A stretch of 64,000 nucleotides of DNA from Rikenellaceae bacterium (GTDB lineage Bacteria; Bacteroidota; Bacteroidia; Bacteroidales; Rikenellaceae): assembly GCA_045613745.1 (NCBI GenBank), contig JAZLBP010000010.1, positions 87,136 through 151,135 of the forward strand, given 5' to 3'. Both the position numbers and the translations under genes were made by a program. How positions within the stretch are numbered: position 1 is the stretch's first letter; each line of letters begins with the position of its first letter. Below the pieces are notes generated by a model. The model saw only the letters and a program-made list of their open reading frames with translations. It made no database searches and was not told the origin of the DNA. Shown piece after piece: positions 161-57,201 of this stretch.

Positions 161-616
161 ATGCCCGCTCCCATCACAATCTACACCGACGGCTCATCGA
201 GGGGTAACCCCGGACCGGGTGGCTATGGTGTTGTGTTGATTTGTCCGCCATACCGCAAGGAGCTCAGCGCGGGCTATCGTCGCACAACCAACAACCGTAT
301 GGAGCTGCTGGGTGTGATTGTAGGCTTGGAGGCGTTGAAGTTCGAAGGTTCGGACGTAACCATTTACAGCGACTCGAAATATGTGGTCGATGCTGTGAGT
401 AAGGGTTGGGTCTATGGCTGGGAGCGCAAAGGCTTTGCCGGCAAGAAGAATCCCGACTTGTGGGCTCGTTTCCTACGCGTGTTCCGCCGACACAAGGTAC
501 GTTTCGTGTGGATTAAGGGTCACGCCGACAATGTCGAGAATGAGCGTTGCGACCGCCTTGCAGTTGCCGCCGCCGAGGGTGGGAATCTGCTTGAAGACTT
601 CGGCTACGAGGAATAA
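161..616 (+). CDS. rnhA: Ribonuclease HI
   Basis: 151 aa. IYTDGSSRGNPGPGGYG..., TNNRMEL, YSDSKYV and KGHADNVENERCD are typical RNase H type 1 motifs. Confidence 0.92.
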   Translation: MPAPITIYTDGSSRGNPGPGGYGVVLICPPYRKELSAGYRRTTNNRMELLGVIVGLEALKFEGSDVTIYSDSKYVVDAVSKGWVYGWERKGFAGKKNPDLWARFLRVFRRHKVRFVWIKGHADNVENERCDRLAVAAAEGGNLLEDFGYEE

Positions 617-736
617 TGTGCCTAATAAGGTGATTTCTGCGTTAAGCTCGTTCTTCAAATCCTCACATACGCCCAAGTATGGTGCGGTTTGTCGAACATC
701 GCAAGCCTTGAAATCCCTCTTATTATACACATTATT
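612..736 (+). repeat. Structured ~120-nt 3'-UTR repeat, copy A (after rnhA)
   Basis: Conserved core shared with 11125-11248, 19197-19320 and 43031-43147 (reverse-complemented there). Outer arms AATAATGTG/CACATTATT pair perfectly and include the rnhA stop codon (614-616). The strand given is that of the upstream gene. Confidence 0.8.
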
Positions 737-751
737 AAATAACAGCTAAAC

Positions 752-788
752 AAAAGGACTATCCACACAAGGACAGTCCTTTTATTTT
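752..788 (+). terminator. Intrinsic terminator after rnhA and repeat A
   Basis: AAGGACTATCC-loop-GGACAGTCCTT hairpin followed by a T-run. Confidence 0.6.
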
Positions 789-7738: not shown

Positions 7739-8368
7739 ATGGCAAAAGTTAAGAACCTGCTGTTCGACCTCGGCGGAGTGCTGGTCGATTTGTGGTTGGA
7801 GAAGTGCTTGAAGGCATTTCACGACCTCGGCTTCGAGGGTATTGACAACGAGCTGCTCAACCCCTACCACACCGACGGAATGTTTGGCAACAGCGAGCTG
7901 GGTCTGGTGTCGGAGGATGAACTGCGCAACTATGTGCGCGAGCAGGCGGGAAACCCGAGTATCACCGACAAGCAAATTGACGACGCCTACTATGAGTTCA
8001 TCGGCGAGATTCCCGAGTACAAGCTCCAAATGCTGGCCGAGCTCAAAAAACACTATAATATCTATATGCTGAGCAACACCAGCTCGTTTGTATATCCCCG
8101 CATCGCGCGCCAGGAGTTTACCAAACTGGGCGCAACGGTGGAGGATTACTTCGACGGCATCTACTTGTCGTATGAGTTGCATTTGGCCAAGCCCGACCCC
8201 AAGGTGTTTGAGCACATTTTGGAGGACGCAGGCATCCGCGCCGAGGAGACTCTGTTCTTCGATGATAGTCAGGTAAACCTTGACGCAGCAGCAGAGCTCG
8301 GCTTCCAAACCTATCTGGTTGATGTGCAAGAGGATTTCCGCCACGTATTTGAGGAGTTGGAAAAATAG
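7739..8368 (+). CDS. HAD-superfamily hydrolase (subfamily IA-like)
   Basis: LLFDLGGVLVDL motif I and FFDDSQVNLDAA motif IV. Starts 9 nt after the SDR. Confidence 0.8.
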   Translation: MAKVKNLLFDLGGVLVDLWLEKCLKAFHDLGFEGIDNELLNPYHTDGMFGNSELGLVSEDELRNYVREQAGNPSITDKQIDDAYYEFIGEIPEYKLQMLAELKKHYNIYMLSNTSSFVYPRIARQEFTKLGATVEDYFDGIYLSYELHLAKPDPKVFEHILEDAGIRAEETLFFDDSQVNLDAAAELGFQTYLVDVQEDFRHVFEELEK

Positions 8369-8379
8369 AGTTTGCAAAG

Positions 8380-8486
8380 TCCGAAAAAAGGATTAACTTT
8401 GCGGTCGCAAAATCGCCTCACAAGGGGCTGAAATTGCAAAAGTTGTATTATGAGGGCGAGCAAAATTCAAAAAGCACCTTGTAAGA
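8380..8486. repeat. Degenerate relative of the ~120-nt structured repeat (copy E)
   Basis: Same length and shared blocks with copy B (AAGGATT, TTGCG, TGAGGGCGAGCAAAA at the same offset, AAA..CACC), but the central hairpin and closing helix are not preserved. Confidence 0.3.
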
Positions 8487-8499
8487 CAGCTTTCAAGTT

Positions 8500-8574
8500 C
8501 GGGGTGTAGCGCAGCCCGGTTAGCGCACCTGCTTTGGGAGCAGGGGGTCCCGCGTTCGAATCGCGGTACCCCGA
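8500..8574 (+). tRNA. tRNA-Pro (anticodon TGG)
   Basis: CGGGGTG acceptor pairing with TACCCCG, anticodon loop CTTTGGGAG, T-loop GTTCGAATC. Followed by a terminator hairpin. Confidence 0.9.
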
Positions 8575-11080: not shown

Positions 11081-11109
11081 AAAAGGCTGCCCCTCGGGAC
11101 AGCCTTTTT
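11081..11109. terminator. Bidirectional terminator between ppa and zupT
   Basis: AAAAGGCTGCCCCTCGGGACAGCCTTTTT hairpin with A/T runs on both sides. Confidence 0.6.
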
Positions 11110-11124
11110 CGTTTATTTCTTATT

Positions 11125-11248
11125 TAGAAATTGTATAAGAAGAGGATTTTCAAGGCTTGCGAAGCCCGAAAATGCGCAGTTTACTTGGCGTAAATGAGCA
11201 TTTTGAGGGCGAGCATAACGTAGAAAATACCTTTTTATACGATTTCTA
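11125..11248 (-). repeat. Structured ~120-nt 3'-UTR repeat, copy B (after zupT)
   Basis: Outer arms TAGAAATTG/CGATTTCTA (8 Watson-Crick pairs plus 1 G-U). The central hairpin TTTAC/GTAAA is a compensatory variant of CATAC/GTATG. Ends 2 nt from the zupT stop codon (11250-11252). Confidence 0.8.
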
Positions 11249-11249
11249 C

Positions 11250-12050
11250 CTACATCATCAAAATCACACTCACCGCCATAATCGCCATACCCGCAATCAA
11301 GCCATACATCTCGATATGGTTTTCGCCATACTCGCGGGCGGCGGGAAGCAGCTCGTCGAGCGAGATGTAAATCATAATACCCGACACCGCAGCCAACACA
11401 ATATTCATCGTCAGCGCCGACAGCAAGGGCATAAGCACTACAAATCCGACCAGCGCGCCCACAGGCTCGGCCAGACCCGATGCAAACGAGTACCAGAAGG
11501 CTTTGCGACGGTTGCCCGTAGCCGCAAGGATAGGCACCGACACCGCTACGCCCTCGGGGATGTTGTGGATTGCAACCGCAACGGCAACAGCCAGGCCCGT
11601 AGTAGCCGACTCATAGGCCGACATAAAGGTGGCGATACCCTCGGGGAAGTTGTGGATTGCGATGGCGAGAGCCGTAACCAAGCCCATACGTTGCAGTTTA
11701 TGGTGGTTATTAGCGTCGTTAAGTTCCTCGACCGAGTGCAGTTCGTGAGGGTTTTGCACCTCGGGCACAAGGCGGTCGATAATCATCGCAAGCAGCAGTC
11801 CTCCGAACATTGCAAGCACAGCATAGGTTGTGCCCGTCTGCTGGCCGAACTGCTCTTCGAGCGCCGATTGCGAGTCGGCAAAGAGTTCGCAAAACGACAC
11901 ATAGAGCATAACGCCCGCCGACAGACCCAACGCAAACGAAATGAAGCGTCGGTTGGTCGAACGAGTCAATATGGCAATCAGACTGCCCACGCCCGTAGCC
12001 ATTCCGGCAAAGAGCGACAGCACCAAAGCATATACAACAGCCGAGGTCAT
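11250..12050 (-). CDS. zupT: ZIP-family zinc transporter
   Basis: 266 aa. HNFPEGIATF and HNIPEGVAVS are ZIP signature repeats. Confidence 0.88.
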   Translation of the reverse strand: MTSAVVYALVLSLFAGMATGVGSLIAILTRSTNRRFISFALGLSAGVMLYVSFCELFADSQSALEEQFGQQTGTTYAVLAMFGGLLLAMIIDRLVPEVQNPHELHSVEELNDANNHHKLQRMGLVTALAIAIHNFPEGIATFMSAYESATTGLAVAVAVAIHNIPEGVAVSVPILAATGNRRKAFWYSFASGLAEPVGALVGFVVLMPLLSALTMNIVLAAVSGIMIYISLDELLPAAREYGENHIEMYGLIAGMAIMAVSVILMM

Positions 12051-15914: not shown

Positions 15915-16290
15915 AATATATGCAGAATGAAAAAGGCCAAATTGTTTGGCATAAGTCGTTTTATGACCAAAGAAAAAAGCCATACGCCAATAAAGGGGTA
16001 CAGCTTTATAATAAGTCATTAGAGGGCGGCGTTTCCTCTATTATTCGTACCGAATACTCGCCATCGACCGCAGGGTATTCTAACCTTTTGCCATCCTACG
16101 ATGGTATTGTATATTCTCATTTTGTCATTTAATAGAAACCAAACATAGGACGCAACTGTCTATTAAACAATCAGCCATACCCCTTTATGGGATATGGCTG
16201 ATTGTTTTTCCGCCGGTCTGCGGTGGCATAGCCACTTTTGCTACTGCCGTTCTAACCCCTGAACTTTTGGGATAAGGGCGGCAGCCAAAT

Positions 16291-16332
16291 CCGCCGGCTT
16301 GCGGCTGGTTCTTTTTGATGACTCAAAAAGAA
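16291..16332 (-). repeat. Two-hairpin module (GC hairpin plus the perfect palindrome TTCTTTTTGA-N4-TCAAAAAGAA), copy 1, after ubiA-like
   Basis: A near-identical module occurs at 30022-30070 in the same orientation relative to its upstream gene (yidD). Confidence 0.65.
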
Positions 16333-16336
16333 TATA

Positions 16337-17218
16337 TTACAGCACCATTGCAAGAATGGCGAAGGTGGCGAATACCAAACTTGCGATACCGTTCAAAGTT
16401 CCAAATGCGATACCGATATTTTTTTGTTGGGTGGGGGTTACGAGCAGGTGTTCGAGCACCAGAACTGCGCCAAACAAACCTGCGCCAATCCAATACCAAA
16501 GACCAAATCCGCACAACAGTCCGAAAAGGGCTACTGCGCCAAGGCTTATAACGTGCAGGGCAATGCTGATGGAGAGTGCGCCCCAACCCGAGAAACGTGC
16601 GGGGATAGAGTGCAGGCCGCGAGCGCGGTCAAACTCTGCATCCTGCATCGCATAAATGATGTCAAATCCGCCAACCCAAGTGAGTACCAGCGCCGATAAC
16701 ACCAAAGGCTCTGCAGCAAACTGACCCGTAACGGCAATGTAGGCACCCACAGGAGCGATTCCGAGCGCAAGGCCCAACACGATGTGGGCGAGTGCAGTAA
16801 AGCGTTTGCAGTAGCTGTATCCCATAACCACGAGCAGCGCCACGGGCGACAGGCACAAGGTCAGAGGGTTGATGGTTGCGGTCACGGCAACGAACAGCAA
16901 GGCATTAACAATCACAAAGGTGAGGGCTGCGCGAGGCGAAATCTGTCCCGACGGAATCTCACGCGAAGCGGTGCGGGGATTCTCGGCGTCGATGTGTCGG
17001 TCTGCCCAGCGGTTGAATCCCATTGCGGTGTTACGCGCCAGCACCATACAGGCCACAACCTGCACCAACAGCACCCAATCGAACACAGCCGAGGTAGAAG
17101 TCAGTGCCCAAGTGTAGCCCACCAGAGCAAAAGGCATAGCAAAGATGGTGTGCGAGAATTTCACCATCGACAGGTATTTACTTATTGTAGAGGTCATAAT
17201 GATTTTAATTTCCGACAA
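16337..17218 (-). CDS. UbiA-family aromatic polyprenyltransferase (4-hydroxybenzoate polyprenyltransferase-like)
   Basis: 293 aa, about 8 TM segments. NTAMGFNRWADRHIDAENPRT and YAMQDAEFD are Asp-rich UbiA motifs. Confidence 0.8.
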   Translation of the reverse strand: MSEIKIIMTSTISKYLSMVKFSHTIFAMPFALVGYTWALTSTSAVFDWVLLVQVVACMVLARNTAMGFNRWADRHIDAENPRTASREIPSGQISPRAALTFVIVNALLFVAVTATINPLTLCLSPVALLVVMGYSYCKRFTALAHIVLGLALGIAPVGAYIAVTGQFAAEPLVLSALVLTWVGGFDIIYAMQDAEFDRARGLHSIPARFSGWGALSISIALHVISLGAVALFGLLCGFGLWYWIGAGLFGAVLVLEHLLVTPTQQKNIGIAFGTLNGIASLVFATFAILAMVL

Positions 17219-19041: not shown

Positions 19042-19090
19042 TTCTACTGTACTTTTGGACGCCCAAAAAGCGGGCGCAAACCGCCAGATA

Positions 19091-19144
19091 AAAAGTCATC
19101 CCTACCTCGCTTGTGAGGTAGGGATGACTTTTTTATGAATATTT
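19091..19144. terminator. Terminator between lepA and rlmH
   Basis: AAAAGTCATCCCTACCTC-loop-GAGGTAGGGATGACTTTTTT. Confidence 0.7.
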
Positions 19145-19196
19145 ACCATTCTCATTCTGTTCTGCGACACCCAACAGCACAATAGAACTAAAAATA

Positions 19197-19320
19197 TAAA
19201 ACGCGCATAACAAGAGGAAATTCAAGGCGCGCGAGCGTGAGAAACCGCAGCATACTTGGGCGTATGTGAGGATTTTGAAGGCGAGCGCAACGCCGAAGTT
19301 GCCTTGTTAGGCGTGTTTTA
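19197..19320 (-). repeat. Structured ~120-nt 3'-UTR repeat, copy C (after rlmH)
   Basis: Outer arms TAAAACGCG/CGTGTTTTA. The right arm contains the rlmH stop codon (19318-19320). Confidence 0.8.
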
Positions 19321-19791
19321 CTCGTGGTGGTATGGTTCGCCGCGGAGAATGGTAAACGCGCGATAAAGTTGCTCTGTAAAGATGGGACGGATGATTTGGT
19401 GCGAGAAGGTCATTCGGCTGAGCGAGAGTTTCTCGGCGGCGCGGGCGTAAACCTCCTTCGAAAAGCCATAGGGGCCACCCACGATGAACACCACGCGCTT
19501 GACACCGCTGTTCATACGCTTCTGCATCCACGAGGCAAACTCCAACGATGTGGGTTGCGCACCCTTGTCGTCAAGCAACACAACATAGTCGTCGCCCGAA
19601 AGCTGACGCAAAATCATCTCGCCCTCGGCACGTTTCTGCGCATCCTCGCTCATATTCTTGGAGTTACGAATGTCGGGCAGCTCGGTCAGGGTAAACTTGA
19701 TGTAGCGCGAAATACGACCTGCGTACATTCGCGTCAACTCGGCCACCTGCGCAGAGTCAGTTTTGCCTACGACAAGAAAATCGATGCTCAT
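19318..19791 (-). CDS. rlmH: 23S rRNA (pseudouridine1915-N3)-methyltransferase
   Basis: 157 aa SPOUT protein ending GGPYGFS...LSLSRMTFSHQIIRPIFTEQLYRAFTILRGEPYHHE. Confidence 0.9.
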   Translation of the reverse strand: MSIDFLVVGKTDSAQVAELTRMYAGRISRYIKFTLTELPDIRNSKNMSEDAQKRAEGEMILRQLSGDDYVVLLDDKGAQPTSLEFASWMQKRMNSGVKRVVFIVGGPYGFSKEVYARAAEKLSLSRMTFSHQIIRPIFTEQLYRAFTILRGEPYHHE

Positions 19792-29799: not shown

Positions 29800-30016
29800 A
29801 CGTATATTGGTGTTTCCCGCCATCGCACTGGTACGTTTCTACCAGCTATGCATATCACCTCTGACACCTCCGTCGTGTCGATTCACCCCAACGTGTTCAC
29901 AATACGCCATCCAGGCCCTGCGCAAGCACGGCATATTCAAAGGCGGATGGCTCACAATAAAACGCATAGCTCGTTGCCACCCTTGGGGCGGCAGCGGCTA
30001 CGACCCCGTGCCGTAG
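29756..30016 (+). CDS. yidD: Membrane protein insertion efficiency factor
   Basis: [23 protein letters not shown]...[13 protein letters not shown] motif. Confidence 0.9.
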
Positions 30017-30021
30017 TGCAT

Positions 30022-30070
30022 GTTCTTTTTGAGTCATCAAAAAGAACCAAAAAATGACCCGCAGACCGGG
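30022..30070 (+). repeat. Two-hairpin module (palindrome GTTCTTTTTGA-N4-TCAAAAAGAAC plus a GC hairpin), copy 2, after yidD
   Basis: Starts 6 nt after the yidD stop codon and matches 16291-16332 in reverse complement. Confidence 0.65.
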
Positions 30071-42798: not shown

Positions 42799-42985
42799 TG
42801 TGTGTGTCGTATTTTTGCAAAGTTAGTGTTTTTTTTCGAAACTCCGACTCACAATATTGAGGTATTCGGCGGTGTCAAATACCAACATCGTGCGATTGTG
42901 CGGCACGCGCCAAGGCCCTATCTTTGCAGTGTTATTTTAGTTGAATGGTGATTTTGATTATTCTGTTGGAATCTTGATTCCATCG

Positions 42986-43020
42986 AAAAAGAGTTGTCGG
43001 GATGACAACTCTTTTTGTTT
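42986..43020. terminator. Bidirectional terminator downstream of feoAB and repeat D
   Basis: AAAAAGAGTTGTC-GGGAT-GACAACTCTTTTT, followed by GTTTT. Confidence 0.7.
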
Positions 43021-43030
43021 TATATAATAA

Positions 43031-43147
43031 GAACGTGTATAAGAAGAGGGCAAGGCTTGCGAAACGCGAGAAACCGCAGCATACTTGGGTGTATGTGAAG
43101 ATTTCGAGCGAAAACGTAACGCAGAAATCACCCTCTTAGGCACGTTC
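43031..43147 (-). repeat. Structured ~120-nt 3'-UTR repeat, copy D (after feoAB)
   Basis: Outer arms GAACGTG/CACGTTC abut and overlap the feoB stop codon (43147-43149). Confidence 0.8.
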
Positions 43148-45525
43148 TACATAAATAAGCCAGCGATTATAAATGTAAGCCAAGCCATTAACCAAGCAAT
43201 AGCAGTGTTGTAAAGCACCGTAAACCACGCCCATCGGCGGCTTCCCGTTTCGTGGCGCACCGTAGCCACTGTGGCTATGCACGGGAAGAACAGCAGCACG
43301 AAGATCATAAACGACAGTGCCGAGGCGGGGGTAAAGCCGCTTGACGAGGCAAGCGAAGTGGCAAGTCCCTCTTCGGAGTCGGCACCACACAATACGCCAA
43401 GTGTACTCACCACCAGCTCCTTGGCGGGGATGCTTGTCAACAGGGCCACACTTGCGCGCCAGTCGAGTCCGAGGGGTTTCATTATGGGTTCGATAACTCG
43501 GCCCACGCGACCCACAAACGAGTACTCTTGTTGTGCGGCTACGGGATCAGTCGAAGCATCGAGGGTTGCAGCATCCAAGCGAGGGAAGTAGCCCAGCACC
43601 CATATTATAATGGTAGCCAGCAGAATGACCGTACCGATTTTACGCAGGTATTGTTCGCACTTGTCCCACATATGTTTGAGGGTAGCCAAGAGTGTCGGCA
43701 CGCGATAGGGCGGAAGCTCCATTACAAAGGGTGTTTCGTCCTTATGGAACTTAATGGCGCGTAACAGACGGGCCGTAATACCCGCAACCGCGATACCGCA
43801 AAGGTACAATCCCACCAACACCAGCGGAGCCGCATCGGGGAAGAATGCACCAGCAAGCAGAATATAGACGGGGAGTCGCGCACTGCACGACATAAACGGA
43901 GTGATGAGGATTGTTATGAGTCGGCTGCTACGGCTCTCGATGGTGCGCGTCGCCATAATCGCGGGCACGTTACATCCGAAGCCCATCAGCAAGGGGATGA
44001 ACGACTTGCCGTGCAGACCCATTCGGTGCATCACCCTATCCATAATGAATGCCGCGCGAGCCATATAGCCCGAGTCCTCCATCAGCGAGATAAACAAGTA
44101 TAGTATCAAGATATTGGGCAGGAACACAGCCACGCTTCCCACACCGCCGACAATTCCATCGACCAGCAGGCTACGCAGCCAACCCTCGGGTACAATCGCC
44201 CCCAGCCACTCGCCAAGCAGGGCAAAAGCCATCTCAATCCACGCCTGCGGATATGCACCAAGCTTGAAGGTGGCAAAGAACATCAGCCACATCACAAAAA
44301 CAAAAATCGGGAAGCCCAGCCATTTGTTGGCAACCAGACGGTCGATACGGCGGGTACGGCGATTGGTGTCACGCGTGGGCTCGGTCATAGTCTCGGCCAG
44401 TGCACCCGCAATGAAACCATACTTTGCGTCACTGACTGCCATCTCGACATCCTTGCCCGTGCGTCGTTCGACAATCGCGGCCGCCTTGACACCCTCGGCA
44501 ACCCACTCATCGAAATTGCGGCACGCCGACAGTACCGACAGCGCCTCCTTGTCACCCTCAATAAGTTTGACAGCCCAATAGCGGACGGGAAACTGCTTTG
44601 GCAGGTCGTCGCACGGACGAATCATTGCTGCAAGCTCGGCTATCTGCTCCTCCATCACACTGCCATAGCCGATGTGGATGTGGCGGGCAACGGAGTTGGT
44701 ACCCTCGAACATCTCGATTACGGTATCGAGCAGCTGTTCCAAACCTCTGCCACTGCGCGCAACGGTGGGCACCATAGGCACACCCATCATAGCGCCAAGC
44801 GTTTGGTAATCAAGCGTAGCACCGCTTGCGGCCAACTCGTCGTACATATTGAGAGCCACCACGGTACGTTGGTTCAGGTCGATAAGTTCGGTTGTGAGGT
44901 AGAGGTTGCGCTCGACATTGGAGGCCACCACCGAGTTTACAATAACGTCGGGCATCTGTTCGTAGAGGTGACGACGCACATAGACCTCCTCGGGCGAGTA
45001 GGCCGACAGCGAATAGGTACCCGGCAGGTCGGTGATATTAATTTTATAGCCCTTGTAGGAAAAGTGTCCCGTTGTGGCATCCACCGTCACGCCGCTATAG
45101 TTGCCGACGTGTTCGCTTGCACCCGACAGAGCATTGAACAGCGAGGTCTTGCCACTATTGGGATTGCCGACCAGCGCCACATTGATTACGTTTTGGCGTG
45201 TAGCCTTGCGCATTCGGCGGAAACAATCCACCACCGAACACTCGCCACACATCGAGTCGCAGCCCACGGTAGCCACAGCCTCAACTTGAAGTTGAGCCTC
45301 GGCCTCGGGCAACACCTCGATCATTGCGGCCTCGCTACGGCGCAACGACACATCGTAGCCCATAACGGTATATTTCACAGGGTCGCTGAACGGCGAGTCG
45401 AGCACCGACAACACCTTTTGTCCTCGCACGAAGCCCATCTCCATAATGCGCTTGCGAAAACCTCCGTGTCCCGACACTCGGACAATTACGGCAGATTCGC
45501 CGTTTTTGAGTTCCGACAGTTTCAT
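43147..45525 (-). CDS. feoB: Ferrous iron transporter, fused FeoA-FeoB
   Basis: N-terminal FeoA (LSELKNGESAVIVRV), G-domain GNPNSGKTSLFN, and a polytopic C-terminus. Start set at the ATG at 45525. Confidence 0.93.
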   Translation of the reverse strand: MKLSELKNGESAVIVRVSGHGGFRKRIMEMGFVRGQKVLSVLDSPFSDPVKYTVMGYDVSLRRSEAAMIEVLPEAEAQLQVEAVATVGCDSMCGECSVVDCFRRMRKATRQNVINVALVGNPNSGKTSLFNALSGASEHVGNYSGVTVDATTGHFSYKGYKINITDLPGTYSLSAYSPEEVYVRRHLYEQMPDVIVNSVVASNVERNLYLTTELIDLNQRTVVALNMYDELAASGATLDYQTLGAMMGVPMVPTVARSGRGLEQLLDTVIEMFEGTNSVARHIHIGYGSVMEEQIAELAAMIRPCDDLPKQFPVRYWAVKLIEGDKEALSVLSACRNFDEWVAEGVKAAAIVERRTGKDVEMAVSDAKYGFIAGALAETMTEPTRDTNRRTRRIDRLVANKWLGFPIFVFVMWLMFFATFKLGAYPQAWIEMAFALLGEWLGAIVPEGWLRSLLVDGIVGGVGSVAVFLPNILILYLFISLMEDSGYMARAAFIMDRVMHRMGLHGKSFIPLLMGFGCNVPAIMATRTIESRSSRLITILITPFMSCSARLPVYILLAGAFFPDAAPLVLVGLYLCGIAVAGITARLLRAIKFHKDETPFVMELPPYRVPTLLATLKHMWDKCEQYLRKIGTVILLATIIIWVLGYFPRLDAATLDASTDPVAAQQEYSFVGRVGRVIEPIMKPLGLDWRASVALLTSIPAKELVVSTLGVLCGADSEEGLATSLASSSGFTPASALSFMIFVLLFFPCIATVATVRHETGSRRWAWFTVLYNTAIAWLMAWLTFIIAGLFM

Positions 45526-45553
45526 CTTTTGTTTATCACTATTTTTGCTGATG

Positions 45554-45561
45554 CAAAAATA
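45554..45561 (-). promoter_or_regulatory. -7 box TATTTTTG upstream of feoAB
   Basis: TAnnTTTG on the minus strand, about 28 nt upstream of the ATG and embedded in a direct repeat. Confidence 0.45.
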
Positions 45562-45670
45562 CCCACTTTTGGAGTGTGCATCAATACCCACATTTAGGTA
45601 TTTTAGGTGGTAATGCTATTGAATTTCGCGAAAAAGATGTAACTTTCGGGCACAAAACAAAACATTACAA

Positions 45671-53983: not shown

Positions 53984-54016
53984 CCATAATTGGGAAGAAG
54001 TGAAATCCTACCGAGT

Positions 54017-55381
54017 ATGAAAAAGAATCACGTTTTATTGAGCCTGATTGTCGCAACGGCGGTCAGCCTGATTGTAAATTTCGCCTATCTGCTCTCTATC
54101 TGGGTTGTTAACGACAACAACACAGCCAGCGACGAGAAACCGCGTCCCGAAATCACCTTTGAGGGCGTGGCACACATCAATGCCGACGGCTATGGCTACA
54201 TCCTGACCACAGTCGTAGATGAGAGTGCATTGGAGGAGGCCGAGAGCGCCGAAGACACACTCCGCCCGAGCCTCGTTCAACATAGTTTCGACTCGGTGTA
54301 CATTTCGAGCAACCGCGCCCACCGTTTGGGAGTGCGCGATGGTATGACCATTACGGGTACTGCCGAGCCCGCACGACGCCCCGATGCGCGACCTGTGCTG
54401 ATGCGAATCGACACCATCAACGGCGAGGAGTTCGATTACTCGGCTCTGTTCAAACGCCCCGATGACAATCTGCTGGCAGCCATTCAGGTGGGATTCTATC
54501 TGCTGGTAGCATTCTTGATGTGTCTGATTTTCACACACAACACACAGGGCAATCAACGCAAACACATTGACTTCTTCACTCGTCTGGGATTGTGTGTCGT
54601 GGTGGCTGCTGTGGCCTTCCTGCTGGCACCCGTTGTGGAGCGCTACTCGGGCGAGATTCGCCTCAACATAATGAGCTATAATACGTTCAATCCGATGGTG
54701 ATGTTGCAGTGTACATTTGCGCTTGTGGTGTGTGCGCTGTATGGCCTGACTTGGAGGATGATGGTTCATCAGAGCGCCATCAGCGTCGAGATGGAACGAT
54801 TGAAAGGCGAGGCTTTGGCGGCACGTTACGATGTGCTGGTGGGACAAATCAACCCCCACTTCCTGTTTAACTCGCTCAACTCGCTGTCGATGTTGGTGCG
54901 CGAGGGCAACACCGAGGGTGCACTCAAATACATCGACCAACTCTCCTACACCTTCCGCTATACCATCCGTCCCGACGGCCGAAATATGGTATCGCTGGAA
55001 GAGGAGCTCAAATTCCTGAACGCCTATCGCCACCTTTTGGAAGTGCGCTATGCCGACAAACTCTTCTTTGACATCCGCATCGACGAGGCTATGCGCGAGT
55101 GGTTAATGCCCGCGCTGTCGTTGCAGCCGCTGGTGGAGAATGCTGTCAAACACAACAGCATTACCTCGGCCTGCCCGCTCACAATATCAATCTACACCGA
55201 GGGTGACAACCTTGTCATCAGCAATCCCATCGTGCCCAAGCTCACAAGCGAGGAGAGCACCGGCATCGGTCTGCACAACCTGACCGACCGCTGGTCGATG
55301 TTGGTGGGTCGCCGCGTCGAGGTATCGAAGGATGGCGGCGTGTTCCGCGTTGTGTTACCCCTAATTCACGAAGCACGATGA
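54017..55381 (+). CDS. LytS/YehU-type sensor histidine kinase with a Rho-N-terminal-like OB domain in the first extracytoplasmic loop
   Basis: GQINPHFLFNSLNS (His_kinase PF06580-type H-box) and LQPLVENAVKH. There are 4 predicted TM segments. Residues about 45-138 (counted from the ATG at 54017) resemble the Rho RNA-binding domain. Confidence 0.85.
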   Translation: MKKNHVLLSLIVATAVSLIVNFAYLLSIWVVNDNNTASDEKPRPEITFEGVAHINADGYGYILTTVVDESALEEAESAEDTLRPSLVQHSFDSVYISSNRAHRLGVRDGMTITGTAEPARRPDARPVLMRIDTINGEEFDYSALFKRPDDNLLAAIQVGFYLLVAFLMCLIFTHNTQGNQRKHIDFFTRLGLCVVVAAVAFLLAPVVERYSGEIRLNIMSYNTFNPMVMLQCTFALVVCALYGLTWRMMVHQSAISVEMERLKGEALAARYDVLVGQINPHFLFNSLNSLSMLVREGNTEGALKYIDQLSYTFRYTIRPDGRNMVSLEEELKFLNAYRHLLEVRYADKLFFDIRIDEAMREWLMPALSLQPLVENAVKHNSITSACPLTISIYTEGDNLVISNPIVPKLTSEESTGIGLHNLTDRWSMLVGRRVEVSKDGGVFRVVLPLIHEAR

Positions 55382-56127: not shown

Positions 56128-56417
56128 TTCCGTTCAAACCGCCATTTGGTCGGTTCACCGCCCAAAAATTCCGTTTCACCCGACACAGTGTATGTGTCGG
56201 GTTTTTTATTACTAATTTTGTTCTCAGAAAAAGCAACCAAACACAATTCCAAACAATGAAACGCTTATACCAAATAGTACGATGCACGGCCACGGGGCTG
56301 ACGACGACGCAAACGCGCCGCTAATCCCCGCACACTCCGTATCCCCGTCCAACCCTCGGGTCGGACACAACAACATCACACATTATTTAGTATAACACAC
56401 AAAAAACACAAGAAACT

Positions 56418-57041
56418 ATGAAAAAGATTGTAATGGCGGCAATGGCATTGGTAGTAATCCTCTCCGCATCGGTTGTAAACGCTAACGCACAAATGCGACA
56501 CCTGTCGCCCGAACAAATAGCCGAGATTCGCTCGGATCGTATGGCTCGTGAACTGCACCTCAGCGCAGCACAATACGCAAAACTGTATAAACTCAACCTC
56601 CGAGAGGCTCGTCGAATGGATCGCCACGGCGCATACTTCTTCGACTGCGAGGATTACAGATGCGACCTGCTCCGAATCATTGGCGATATTAATTACAGAT
56701 TGTACGAATCGATGGTGCACAACCACCGCAAAAACCACAGAGGACACCTGCACGCACAAGCGCCACACGTTGCGCCTCACGTTGCGCCTCACGCAGTGCA
56801 TCATCAAGCACACGTAGCGCCACACGTTGCACCGCACGCGAAACCCCACGTCGAGGCTCACAAAGCACACGTAAAGCCTCACGCGGAGCCCCACGCAAAA
56901 CCTCACGCAGCGCCCGCTCCTAACAAGGGTGGCGCAAGCAAACCCGAGGTAGGCAAGCCCGGTGCAGGTAAACCCGAGGCAGGCAAACCCGGTGGTGGCA
57001 ATGGCGGACCCCAAAATCGTCCCCAATTCAGAATGAAGTAA
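56418..57041 (+). CDS. Secreted His-rich repeat protein with a Spy/CpxP/ZraP-like (LTxxQ-type) N-terminal region
   Basis: Signal peptide MKKIVMAAMALVVILSASVVNANAQ. The helical region contains LSPEQIAEI and LSAAQYAKL. It is followed by (A/K)PH(V/A) tetrapeptide repeats and then a GKP-rich tail. Confidence 0.75.
   Translation: MKKIVMAAMALVVILSASVVNANAQMRHLSPEQIAEIRSDRMARELHLSAAQYAKLYKLNLREARRMDRHGAYFFDCEDYRCDLLRIIGDINYRLYESMVHNHRKNHRGHLHAQAPHVAPHVAPHAVHHQAHVAPHVAPHAKPHVEAHKAHVKPHAEPHAKPHAAPAPNKGGASKPEVGKPGAGKPEAGKPGGGNGGPQNRPQFRMK
56718..56909 (+). repeat. In-frame 12-nt periodic coding repeat (His-x-x-Pro type tetrapeptides)
   Basis: HNHRKNHRGHLHAQAPHVAPHVAPHAVHHQAHVAPHVAPHAKPHVEAHKAHVKPHAEPHAKPH. 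I count 19 His in 64 residues. Confidence 0.8.
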
Positions 57042-57201
57042 CTCTCGAAAGAGTCGCACCCCCCTGGCCGAGTACACTACTCAGTTTTATATATCCCCAG
57101 TTTTCGGAGTGGGAGGTTTCGGTCGGATTATTATTTGTTGGTCGAGGACCCGATTAGAGTTGGTCGGGTCCTCCTTTTTTGCATATTAAAGAGCATAATT
57201 A

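Follow-up and report, generated by a model that had tools for sequence, protein, structure and literature searches.

The 64,000-nt stretch of Rikenellaceae bacterium contig JAZLBP010000010.1 (assembly GCA_045613745.1, positions 87,136 to 151,135; hereafter the window) carries four intact copies of a ~125-nt quasi-palindromic hairpin repeat, each lying at the stop codon of an unrelated gene, in the orientation of that gene and ahead of a separate terminator. The repeat covaries along its whole length as a single helix, and it folds better on the strand antisense to the upstream gene, i.e. the template strand of transcription, hereafter the bottom strand. We favour, with a probability of roughly 0.6, the reading that this element is a proliferating, non-autonomous hairpin repeat that propagates via the folding of its bottom strand and whose placement is filtered by the genomic niche. 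It is of the same general kind as the repetitive extragenic palindromes (REP) with their REPIN doublets, ERIC and Correia repeats, and belongs to none of them by sequence or by defining features.

A covariance model of the repeat, built from 24 copies and run over the window, returned exactly four full copies, the remaining matches being weak and terminator-like; the opposite strand at the four sites scored only 22-31 bits. Copy 1 (612-736, plus strand; model match 611-737, 140 bits) follows rnhA (161-616). Its outer arms are at 612-620 and 728-736, with the rnhA TAA (614-616) inside the left arm, and its conserved apical helix spans about 661-687. Copy 2 (11125-11248, minus strand; model match 11124-11249, 128 bits) follows zupT (11250-12050, minus), whose TAG (11250-11252) is 1 nt upstream of the left arm (arms 11240-11248 and 11125-11133); its apex is the variant CUCAUUUAC..GUAAACUGCG, in which the changes are compensatory. 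Behind rlmH (19318-19791, minus) lies copy 3 (19197-19320, minus; model match 19196-19321, 120 bits; arms 19312-19320 and 19197-19205), the rlmH TAA (19318-19320) forming the first 3 nt of the left arm. Behind feoB (43147-45591, minus) lies copy 4 (43031-43149, minus; model match 43028-43150, 114 bits; arms 43141-43147 and 43031-43037), with a 4-nt deletion in the right arm and the feoB TAG (43147-43149) overlapping the left one. The copies are thus spaced 8-24 kb apart, behind genes annotated as RNase HI, ZupT, RlmH and FeoB (NCBIfam). A preliminary description of this DNA had reported four intact quasi-palindromes of this length flush with the stops of unrelated genes; the covariance model and the stop positions agree on this. 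The common orientation of all four relative to the upstream gene can be read from the sequence, and the outer arms pair as inverted repeats, as stated there.

The hairpin itself is not an intrinsic terminator, no T-run following it on the sense strand. From the sequence and from terminator scans, each copy is followed by a separate A-tract/stem/T-tract hairpin: at 752-788, plus strand, behind copy 1 (bidirectional, AAAAGGACTATCC..GGACAGTCCTTTT plus a T-run; 787-748 in the terminator scan), at approximately 11081-11109 behind copy 2 (AAAAAGGCTGTCCCGAGGGGCAGCCTTTT on the minus strand), at approximately 19090-19134, minus strand, behind copy 3 (AAAAAAGTCATCCCTACCTC..GAGGTAGGGATGACTTTTT) and at 42986-43016, minus strand, behind copy 4 (AAAAAGAGTTGTCATCCCGACAACTCTTTTT; terminator scan). 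The separate terminators stand as first described; the 10-52 nt spacing given with them fits three copies (15, 15 and 14 nt for copies 1, 2 and 4) and fails for rlmH, where the distance is about 62 nt. All four copies are by far more stable than shuffled sequences, the sense strand of the rlmH copy being the weaker exception. A degenerate relic was also found at 8406-8496 (minus strand; 18 bits, E 0.06), with a recognisable left arm (GCTGTCTTACAAGGTGCTTTTTG..) and a lost apex. Since it lies between the stop of a HAD-hydrolase gene (8366-8368) and a tRNA gene (8500-8574) with no co-oriented gene ahead, the claim that the repeat always sits between a stop codon and a terminator was too strong.

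To place these copies in context we used comparison genomes consisting of fragments of metagenome-assembled genomes (MAGs) of 8 kb or less around each match (L numbers below), with open reading frames (ORFs) called mechanically. We considered the terminator as a general part of the repeated unit and rejected this, as downstream sequences vary and the zupT and rlmH terminators are common to alleles with and without the element; the copy 2 terminator, for instance, is kept in strain L156, which has no repeat. In one MAG (L020, L029, L041) the terminator does belong to the repeated unit, which reaches the end of the T-tract, and the terminators of the Tidjanibacter MAG copies are alike.

Each unit forms a single irregular helix, about 125 nt long, that covaries from end to end. 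In an alignment of 24 copies of the window's subfamily, with 40 pairs in the consensus structure, 95.9% of the cells are paired and 23 of the 40 pairs have changed on both sides. The double-changed pairs include the four outermost, the terminal pair occurring as GC (11), AU (7), GU (2), CG (1) and UA (1). None of 500 shuffles attained the observed pairing values, and sliding the partner by 1-3 columns left only 35-45% of the cells paired. Most substitutions are double, transversions included, and G.U intermediates on the sense strand are few. The earlier proposal that the arms co-evolve to keep a long helix is therefore borne out by the alignment.

The conserved part of the helix is its apex, CUCACAUA[C/G], a 5-6 nt loop of free sequence and [G/C]UAUGCUGCG, forming an irregular 28-nt helix of 5 bp, a bulged C, 2 bp, a 1x1 U.C mismatch and 2 bp. 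This apex is carried on several very different stems, the window type (..GAAGYTGTCTAACAAGGTGATTTC..), a second (AAAATCATTCTGATTGG..) and a third (CACAAGATAAAATAAGG..), plus hybrids, and the bases adjoining the apex segment vary in coordination between stem types. In 13 copies found by the model outside the search pattern, the apical helix is kept through a compensatory C/G swap and the loop varies. Variation is greatest at the helix base, where the termini differ by subfamily (GAAGYTG, AAAATCA, AAGGYCGAT, CACAAGATAAAAT). The window arms nevertheless align with one another (TA[G/A]AAnnnG / CnnnTT[C/T]TA) and with the conserved TAGAAGYTG / CARCTTCTA of other MAGs; they do differ between copies, as had been noted, and are not copy-specific, being homologous across copies and genomes. 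The identical arm AAGCAAATAAAA at two unrelated upstream genes likewise indicates that the arm originates from the element. The outer 7-9 bp arms are the fast-evolving base of one long helix, brought by the element; in a few copies (L013, L041:4172, L019:7801) this helix takes in the final codons of the gene.

We then compared the folding of the two strands. In a set of 35 non-redundant copies, it was always the antisense strand that folded better (35/35): it averaged -50.2 kcal/mol and the sense strand -42.3 kcal/mol (Wilcoxon p = 6e-11), with 119 G.U pairs versus 53 on the sense strand. The consensus fold of the alignment behaves in the same way (-39.3 kcal/mol antisense, -28.7 sense), and within the antisense-derived structure 73 cells correspond to A.C on the sense strand and 15 cells to G.U. 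With DNA energy parameters the bottom strand is again more stable in 4/4 window copies. A.C being the one mismatch type that turns into a wobble on the other strand, this argues for the bottom strand as the one whose pairing is preserved. The preliminary description had considered that the few asymmetries visible in the window do not decide which strand is functional; the enlarged set points to the antisense strand. Its suggestion that the helix serves in a 3' untranslated region (3'-UTR) RNA survives in part: the long co-evolving helix is there, and a simple function of the sense-strand RNA is disfavoured. Two further ideas were discarded. For a sense transcript shaped to avoid a long RNase III-type duplex, the median of the longest uninterrupted helix is 8 bp (sense) against 10 bp (antisense), too small a difference, and for an antisense terminator or Bacteroidetes-type promoter inside the element, inspection by eye gave a TAnnTTTG box in one subfamily only and no consistent T-run.

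The placement rule was examined in a census of 61 copies (about 47 independent loci by orthologous grouping), taking for each the longest ORF whose stop starts -45 to +30 nt from the first model position of the element. A same-strand ORF of at least 300 nt lies ahead of the element in 52/61 copies; its stop is offset by -29 to +14 nt from the element start, and by no more than 3 nt either way in 35 of the 52. In the mirror test, only one (L048) of the 8 convergent ORFs of that length occupies the equivalent position abutting the other end. One copy starts 1-2 nt past a tRNA-Leu gene, which makes the rule one of the end of the gene and not of the stop codon. The element sits, co-oriented with the gene, in the 9-20 nt spacer between gene end and terminator. 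Its orientation tracks the gene, not the chromosome arm: replication direction was rejected as the cause, since copies are found on both strands within 11 kb and the window has no skew switch. A stop-codon preference was not retained either, the TAA/TAG/TGA counts (36/13/3) showing no clear difference from the background (119/61/24).

Scanning one genome per species with the central 22 nt as query gave 49 loci, all of them in Alistipes, Tidjanibacter or other Rikenellaceae MAGs, mostly from the ruminant gut; the motif was not found at 80 zupT loci of more distant bacteria (64% identity or less). A relaxed apex pattern was also run over IMG/VR viral contigs, where about one third of the matches are chance ones without a hairpin around them. 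Some contigs of Bacteroidales phages contain hairpins, about 100 nt in size, that bear the same apex on unrelated stems (L162-L168, L170, L173-L176, L178, L179, L183-L185, L189, L190). One lies between the portal and Mu-F genes of a Mu-like phage, antisense to the operon, another directly behind a 710-aa ORF of a GC-rich viral contig, in sense, and a third in a divergent intergenic region of another viral contig. The bottom-strand bias in stability recurs in the phage hairpins (e.g. -42 versus -28 kcal/mol). The conservation of the apex across very different stems and phages points to one trans-acting partner.

Several observations are those expected from mobile DNA. Near-identical copies occur at unrelated loci within one MAG (L004, L006, L008) and within another (L020, L029, L031, L041), and the subfamily found behind a given orthologous gene can change from genome to genome. 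Strains with 99% identical RlmH and intact lepA synteny differ at the rlmH site: the window, L141 and L143 carry the element, and in L140, L142 and L144 the slot holds a different segment of about 155 nt (L140:3474-3628). This segment belongs to a second hairpin repeat family (ATGTTCTTTTTGAG[CT]CATCAAAAAGAACC..CCGCAGACCGG), unrelated to the first, that follows the same flush sense rule, 1-3 nt after the stops of yidD (window 30017-30070, plus strand; stop 30014-30016), of a ubiA-family gene (window 16208-16336, minus strand; stop 16337-16339) and, in these other strains, of rlmH. At zupT, a strain with 97% identical ZupT (L156:835-1932) has in the slot of the repeat a 365-aa ORF that starts 2 nt past the stop, with a hydrophobic N-terminus, a coiled middle and a C-terminal HNH domain, ahead of the same terminator; both the repeat and the HNH ORF are missing from relatives at 86% and 83% identity. 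Copy 1 is kept in 10/10 strains with identical RnhA, and one of them (L150:2075-3456) loses synteny after rnhA precisely where the hairpin ends on its 3' side (..CACATTATTAAATAA|ACCCC), with a tyrosine integrase gene (Arm-DNA-bind_5, SAM_5 and Phage_integrase domains) beginning about 250 nt beyond the junction. The end of the repeat or its flank may serve as attachment site; no integrase homologues were found near other copies. With the second repeat, the HNH ORF and the integrase element all at the same slot, the few bases after a gene end are a general landing place in these genomes, and the present repeat is one occupant among several.

Derived forms of the repeat are found as well. Tandem arrays occur directly behind a gene, with 3.6 units of 113 nt after a gap gene (L037:547-953) and further tandem pairs at L038:646-906, L019:7801-8000 and L027:5986-6200, with no ORFs between the tandem copies. 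At L001:825-1010 the right half of a copy from one subfamily comes after a complete copy from another subfamily, which suggests that new copies enter on the gene-proximal side. The copy of L006 is internally deleted down to its outer stems. Other copies contain a nested two-hairpin module of about 80 nt (L009:4600-4700, L044:3711-3917, L026:2380-2480, L046, L033), which occupies either the left arm or the mirrored site of the right arm, there as its reverse complement; one small stem of this module shows a compensatory change of its own (CCATC/GATGG versus CCTTC/GAAGG). TA is present on both sides of L004, L012, window copy 2 and perhaps L008, and was not seen on both sides of L006, L016, L020, L029, L031 and window copies 1, 3 and 4. 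The earlier argument that target duplications, being direct repeats, cannot look inverted fails for TA, which is its own complement; a TA duplication is thus possible in these few copies and is not general.

In the favoured reading, propagation would require folding of the bottom DNA strand, and an enzyme acting in trans would recognise the apex. The complementarity of the arms would persist because only foldable copies get copied. Arm-to-arm template switching, which is known for quasipalindromes, may add to this complementarity and would fit the scarcity of single-sided intermediates in the 24-copy alignment. The rule of placement and orientation most likely reflects filtering by the genomic niche and not recognition of the stop codon, considering that an unrelated repeat obeys the same rule, that other insertions occupy the slot and that one copy lies behind a tRNA gene. 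The slot just past the gene end would tolerate insertions and, once these are within a transcript, would tolerate them in one orientation only.

A number of points weigh against this reading. A near-symmetrical palindrome that transposes is expected in both orientations, and the roughly 50:1 bias needs an extra, unproven cause; both orientations are met in the phage contigs. Several gene ends carry a copy in several species, and such recurrent occupancy could mean that copies are kept as useful to the host. Most loci were gathered by the exact apex pattern, so that the conservation of the apex is partly built into the sample, a bias that the 13 model-only copies and the phage copies reduce only in part. 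Many A.C positions are fixed within a subfamily, so that much of the A.C excess represents few ancestral states, not many independent events. A consistent target-site duplication was not found, TA being at both ends of few copies only, and no clean pre-insertion allele was recovered. The mobiliser has also escaped our searches: a six-frame scan of the window and roughly 190 loci gave no HUH/Y1 motif, an all-against-all comparison of 722 ORFs gave no recurrent protein family beside the copies other than at orthologous loci, and the about 45 window ORFs include nothing mobile and no integrase or intI-like gene, in agreement with the original remark that the window has no transposase. The collected loci also yielded no transposase-bearing element that could be the parent.

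Comparison with known families gave no match. At the gathering score, Rfam 15 returned tRNAs only, and at E up to 10 nothing matched on the element. The FopS/GibS family of small RNAs (sRNAs) was rejected on architecture, FopS sRNAs each having its own promoter, a 5' seed that is single-stranded, and a terminator (PMC11697453). We found nothing specific describing such an element in the literature on Bacteroidetes or Alistipes repeats, and the apex motif was not found in the supplementary text of the survey of RAYT proteins.

Among the alternatives, the one that deserves most attention, although we regard it as rather unlikely, is a host-selected cis-acting RNA of the 3'-UTR, with the sense hairpin active within the mRNA. 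There it could be a barrier to 3'-5' exonucleases, link the end of translation to mRNA fate, be a source of sRNA or offer its apex as a protein-binding platform. Liang, Rudd and Deutscher (2015) reportedly showed that in E. coli a REP within 15 nt of the stop couples translation termination to the fate of the mRNA. The strict sense orientation and stop adjacency argue for such a role, as do the strong covariation, the irregular apex that resembles a protein-binding site, the occupancy of the same gene ends in several species and the second hairpin repeat under the same placement rule; the position always upstream of a separate terminator implies that the element is transcribed with the gene. 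The wobbles, however, favour the antisense strand in 35/35 copies, with A.C mismatches in the sense RNA at these positions, and the changes are mostly double, including transversions, with few sense G.U intermediates. The loop is not conserved, which makes a loop seed unlikely. Bursts of near-identical copies, tandem arrays and replacement at the level of strains are typical of mobile DNA, no ribosome terminates at the copy behind the tRNA gene, the phage copies include antisense and promoter-region contexts, and the upstream genes are functionally unrelated. A quite different use of the transcript, to which we give little credence, is that the moving unit is itself a piece of RNA, the 3' trailer of a gene (hairpin with or without terminator) being copied via RNA/cDNA like a SINE-type retroposed 3'-UTR module. 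Such copying would explain the gene-linked polarity, a left boundary at the end of the gene product (stop codon or tRNA 3' end), the unit that extends to the end of the terminator T-tract (L020, L029, L041) and, through first-strand cDNA, the antisense constraint. Nothing in the data requires it, and no reverse transcriptase was seen.

The remaining alternatives concern DNA. A REPIN-like repeat moved by a RAYT, which is a domesticated transposase of the Y1 HUH type that works on single-stranded DNA (ssDNA), with the apex hairpin as the REP unit, seems quite unlikely to us. It would account for bottom-strand folding being preserved with both DNA and RNA parameters, for the conserved part being the apex, a short imperfect hairpin with a bulge, and for an extragenic, abundant element with compensatory changes; Bacteroidetes moreover own RAYT subclass 2.6, flanked by "atypical secondary structures" (PMC6006769). 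There is no conserved GTAG-type foot, though, and an ORF with the HUH + Y motifs was found neither in the window nor in roughly 190 loci, although a RAYT gene normally has its repeats on either side. Within the 64-kb window the orientation is that of the gene, which is not how a transposase targeting the lagging-strand template would behave, and the motif does not figure in the supplementary text of the RAYT survey. Still harder to sustain is insertion into the loop of a small pre-existing post-stop hairpin, the outer arms being target sequence, which the preliminary description had offered as one of its two explanations. The differing arms of the four window copies and the helix reaching into last codons at L013, L041:4172 and L019:7801 agree with it. 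The arms, however, are homologous across copies and genomes and covary within the model, and AAGCAAATAAAA, an arm overlapping coding sequence, is common to two unrelated genes. Element-free orthologues contradict it at three loci: at rlmH (L130-133, L136; protein 92%, 83% and 78% identical) there are the TAA, about 20 nt and the terminator, at zupT (L157, L161; 86% and 83%) the TAG, 17 nt or less and then the terminator or the next gene, and at feoB (L192; 86%, synteny conserved) the TAA, 9 nt and the terminator, with neither a small hairpin nor an arm sequence between stop and terminator. We give an equally slight chance to an integron-type, attC-like recombination site folded on the bottom strand and attached to ordinary genes. 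The position directly 3' of an ORF and often over its stop, the better folding of the bottom strand, the length of 100-130 nt with structure conserved above sequence, the tyrosine-integrase element joined exactly at the end of one copy and the consensus of the window subfamily (GTCTAAC...GTTATAC, compared with RYYYAAC...GTTRRRY in attC) all recall such sites. Yet RYYYAAC occurs in 10/24 copies and GTTRRRY in 0/24, the AAC/GTT pair covaries to AAT/ATT, AAG/CTT and AAA/TTT and is missing from other subfamilies, and the apex, variable in attC, is what is conserved here. Nor are there cassette arrays: many kb separate the genes, which are of the housekeeping kind, tandem copies have no ORFs in between, and no intI-like gene was found in the window.

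As a proliferating hairpin repeat, the element shares traits with several known systems. The REP/BIME and REPIN sequences of Enterobacteria and Pseudomonas are likewise abundant extragenic hairpins, mostly at gene 3' ends, with compensatory stem changes, a short imperfect hairpin as the conserved recognition-sized unit and one DNA strand whose folding seems to matter; some REPs lie within 15 nt of stop codons. The present element differs from them in having no GTAG/CGTC-type foot and the helix base as its most variable part, in that its conserved unit tops a stem of about 50 bp instead of forming the ends of a doublet, and in an orientation locked to the upstream gene (52:1). ERIC/IRU repeats (Enterobacteria, Yersinia, Vibrio) also measure about 125 nt, form imperfect palindromes and lie in intergenic DNA that is transcribed. 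They too have variants in which a module of about 70-80 nt is added at fixed internal sites (compare L009, L044, L026, L046 and L033), as well as internally deleted ones (compare L006), and no transposase is known for them. ERICs occur in both orientations and often between the genes of operons. Their sequence is unrelated, with no Rfam match for our element, whose stems are far more diverse between copies and which lies flush with the stop codon, ahead of the terminator. Correia/NEMIS repeats of Neisseria resemble it as hairpin repeats of 100-155 bp near genes, co-transcribed as long RNA hairpins, with TA at their ends and a mobilising enzyme that is not known. They have conserved 26-bp inverted repeats at their ends, a regular TA duplication and an internal IHF site, whereas here the ends are most variable, TA flanks are present in some copies only and the orientation rule is strict.

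Likeness to attC sites (e.g. the Vibrio cholerae repeats) lies in the location behind an ORF stop with fixed polarity, the imperfect palindrome of similar length and the better-folding bottom strand; here the R''/R' boxes show no conservation, the conserved part is the apex and not the base, and copies lie behind core genes and a tRNA gene. Palindrome-associated transposable elements (PATEs) derived from IS200/IS605 are also non-autonomous, dependent on ssDNA hairpins and without target duplication. PATEs carry a pair of subterminal hairpins that differ from each other, and their left end has a fixed target tetranucleotide, whereas we observed a single long hairpin, variable left flanks and no TnpA/TnpB in the collected loci. 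Classical miniature inverted-repeat transposable elements, deletion derivatives of DDE insertion sequences, are equally small, non-coding and multi-copy, with insertion polymorphism; here the termini vary by subfamily and there are no terminal inverted repeats in common with a parent insertion sequence. What is unusual in the present case is the combination of a roughly 50:1 gene-linked polarity, a flush placement common to a second repeat, an apex shared with phages and a wobble bias towards the bottom strand.

Additional features were recorded beside these loci. At feoB, comparison of the window (42970-43150) with the 86%-identity relative (L192:3879-3960) shows that the segment from the stop to just past the terminator is unrelated, and that the next roughly 50 nt (CAACAGAATAATCAAAATCACC..), upstream of a RIC/hemerythrin gene, are almost identical; the sequences would suggest block replacement of the feoB 3' region together with a strongly conserved regulatory stretch. 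In many Rikenellaceae loci, short tandemly repeated units of 7-8 nt, namely (GCTAATGG)n, (ACTACTC)n, (AATTCTC)n, (AATTGTC)n and (AAATTAA)n, are found to the right of the main repeat, just upstream of the start of the next gene (L007:2990-3040, L011:6870-6900, L017, L030, L032, L035, L001, L019 and L036); Tandem Repeats Finder gave none of them in the window. The window does contain, at 56760-56991, periodic repeats of 12, 15 and 24 nt (GCGCCTCACGTT, GCAGGCAAACCCGAG) within overlapping ORFs (56376-57077, minus strand, and 56418-57041, plus strand), which probably encode a repetitive protein. The ORF at 53990-55381 (plus strand) is a LytS-type histidine kinase whose N-terminal part matches weakly the RNA-binding domain of Rho (PF07497, 29.8 bits).

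Few of the features that abound in bacterial genomes are as poorly understood as REP, ERIC and Correia repeats; how they spread and what they do is mostly unsettled. The present element offers, in an abundant gut lineage, natural presence/absence alleles among near-identical strains, which are a handle on the spread of such repeats, and a strand asymmetry that indicates which strand is read as structure. Who mobilises the repeats, and whether their position results from targeting or from selection, is therefore directly testable. The placement rule also aids the annotation of Rikenellaceae MAGs, where repeats break assemblies and create spurious ORFs, and the reading of strain-to-strain variation in 3'-UTRs.

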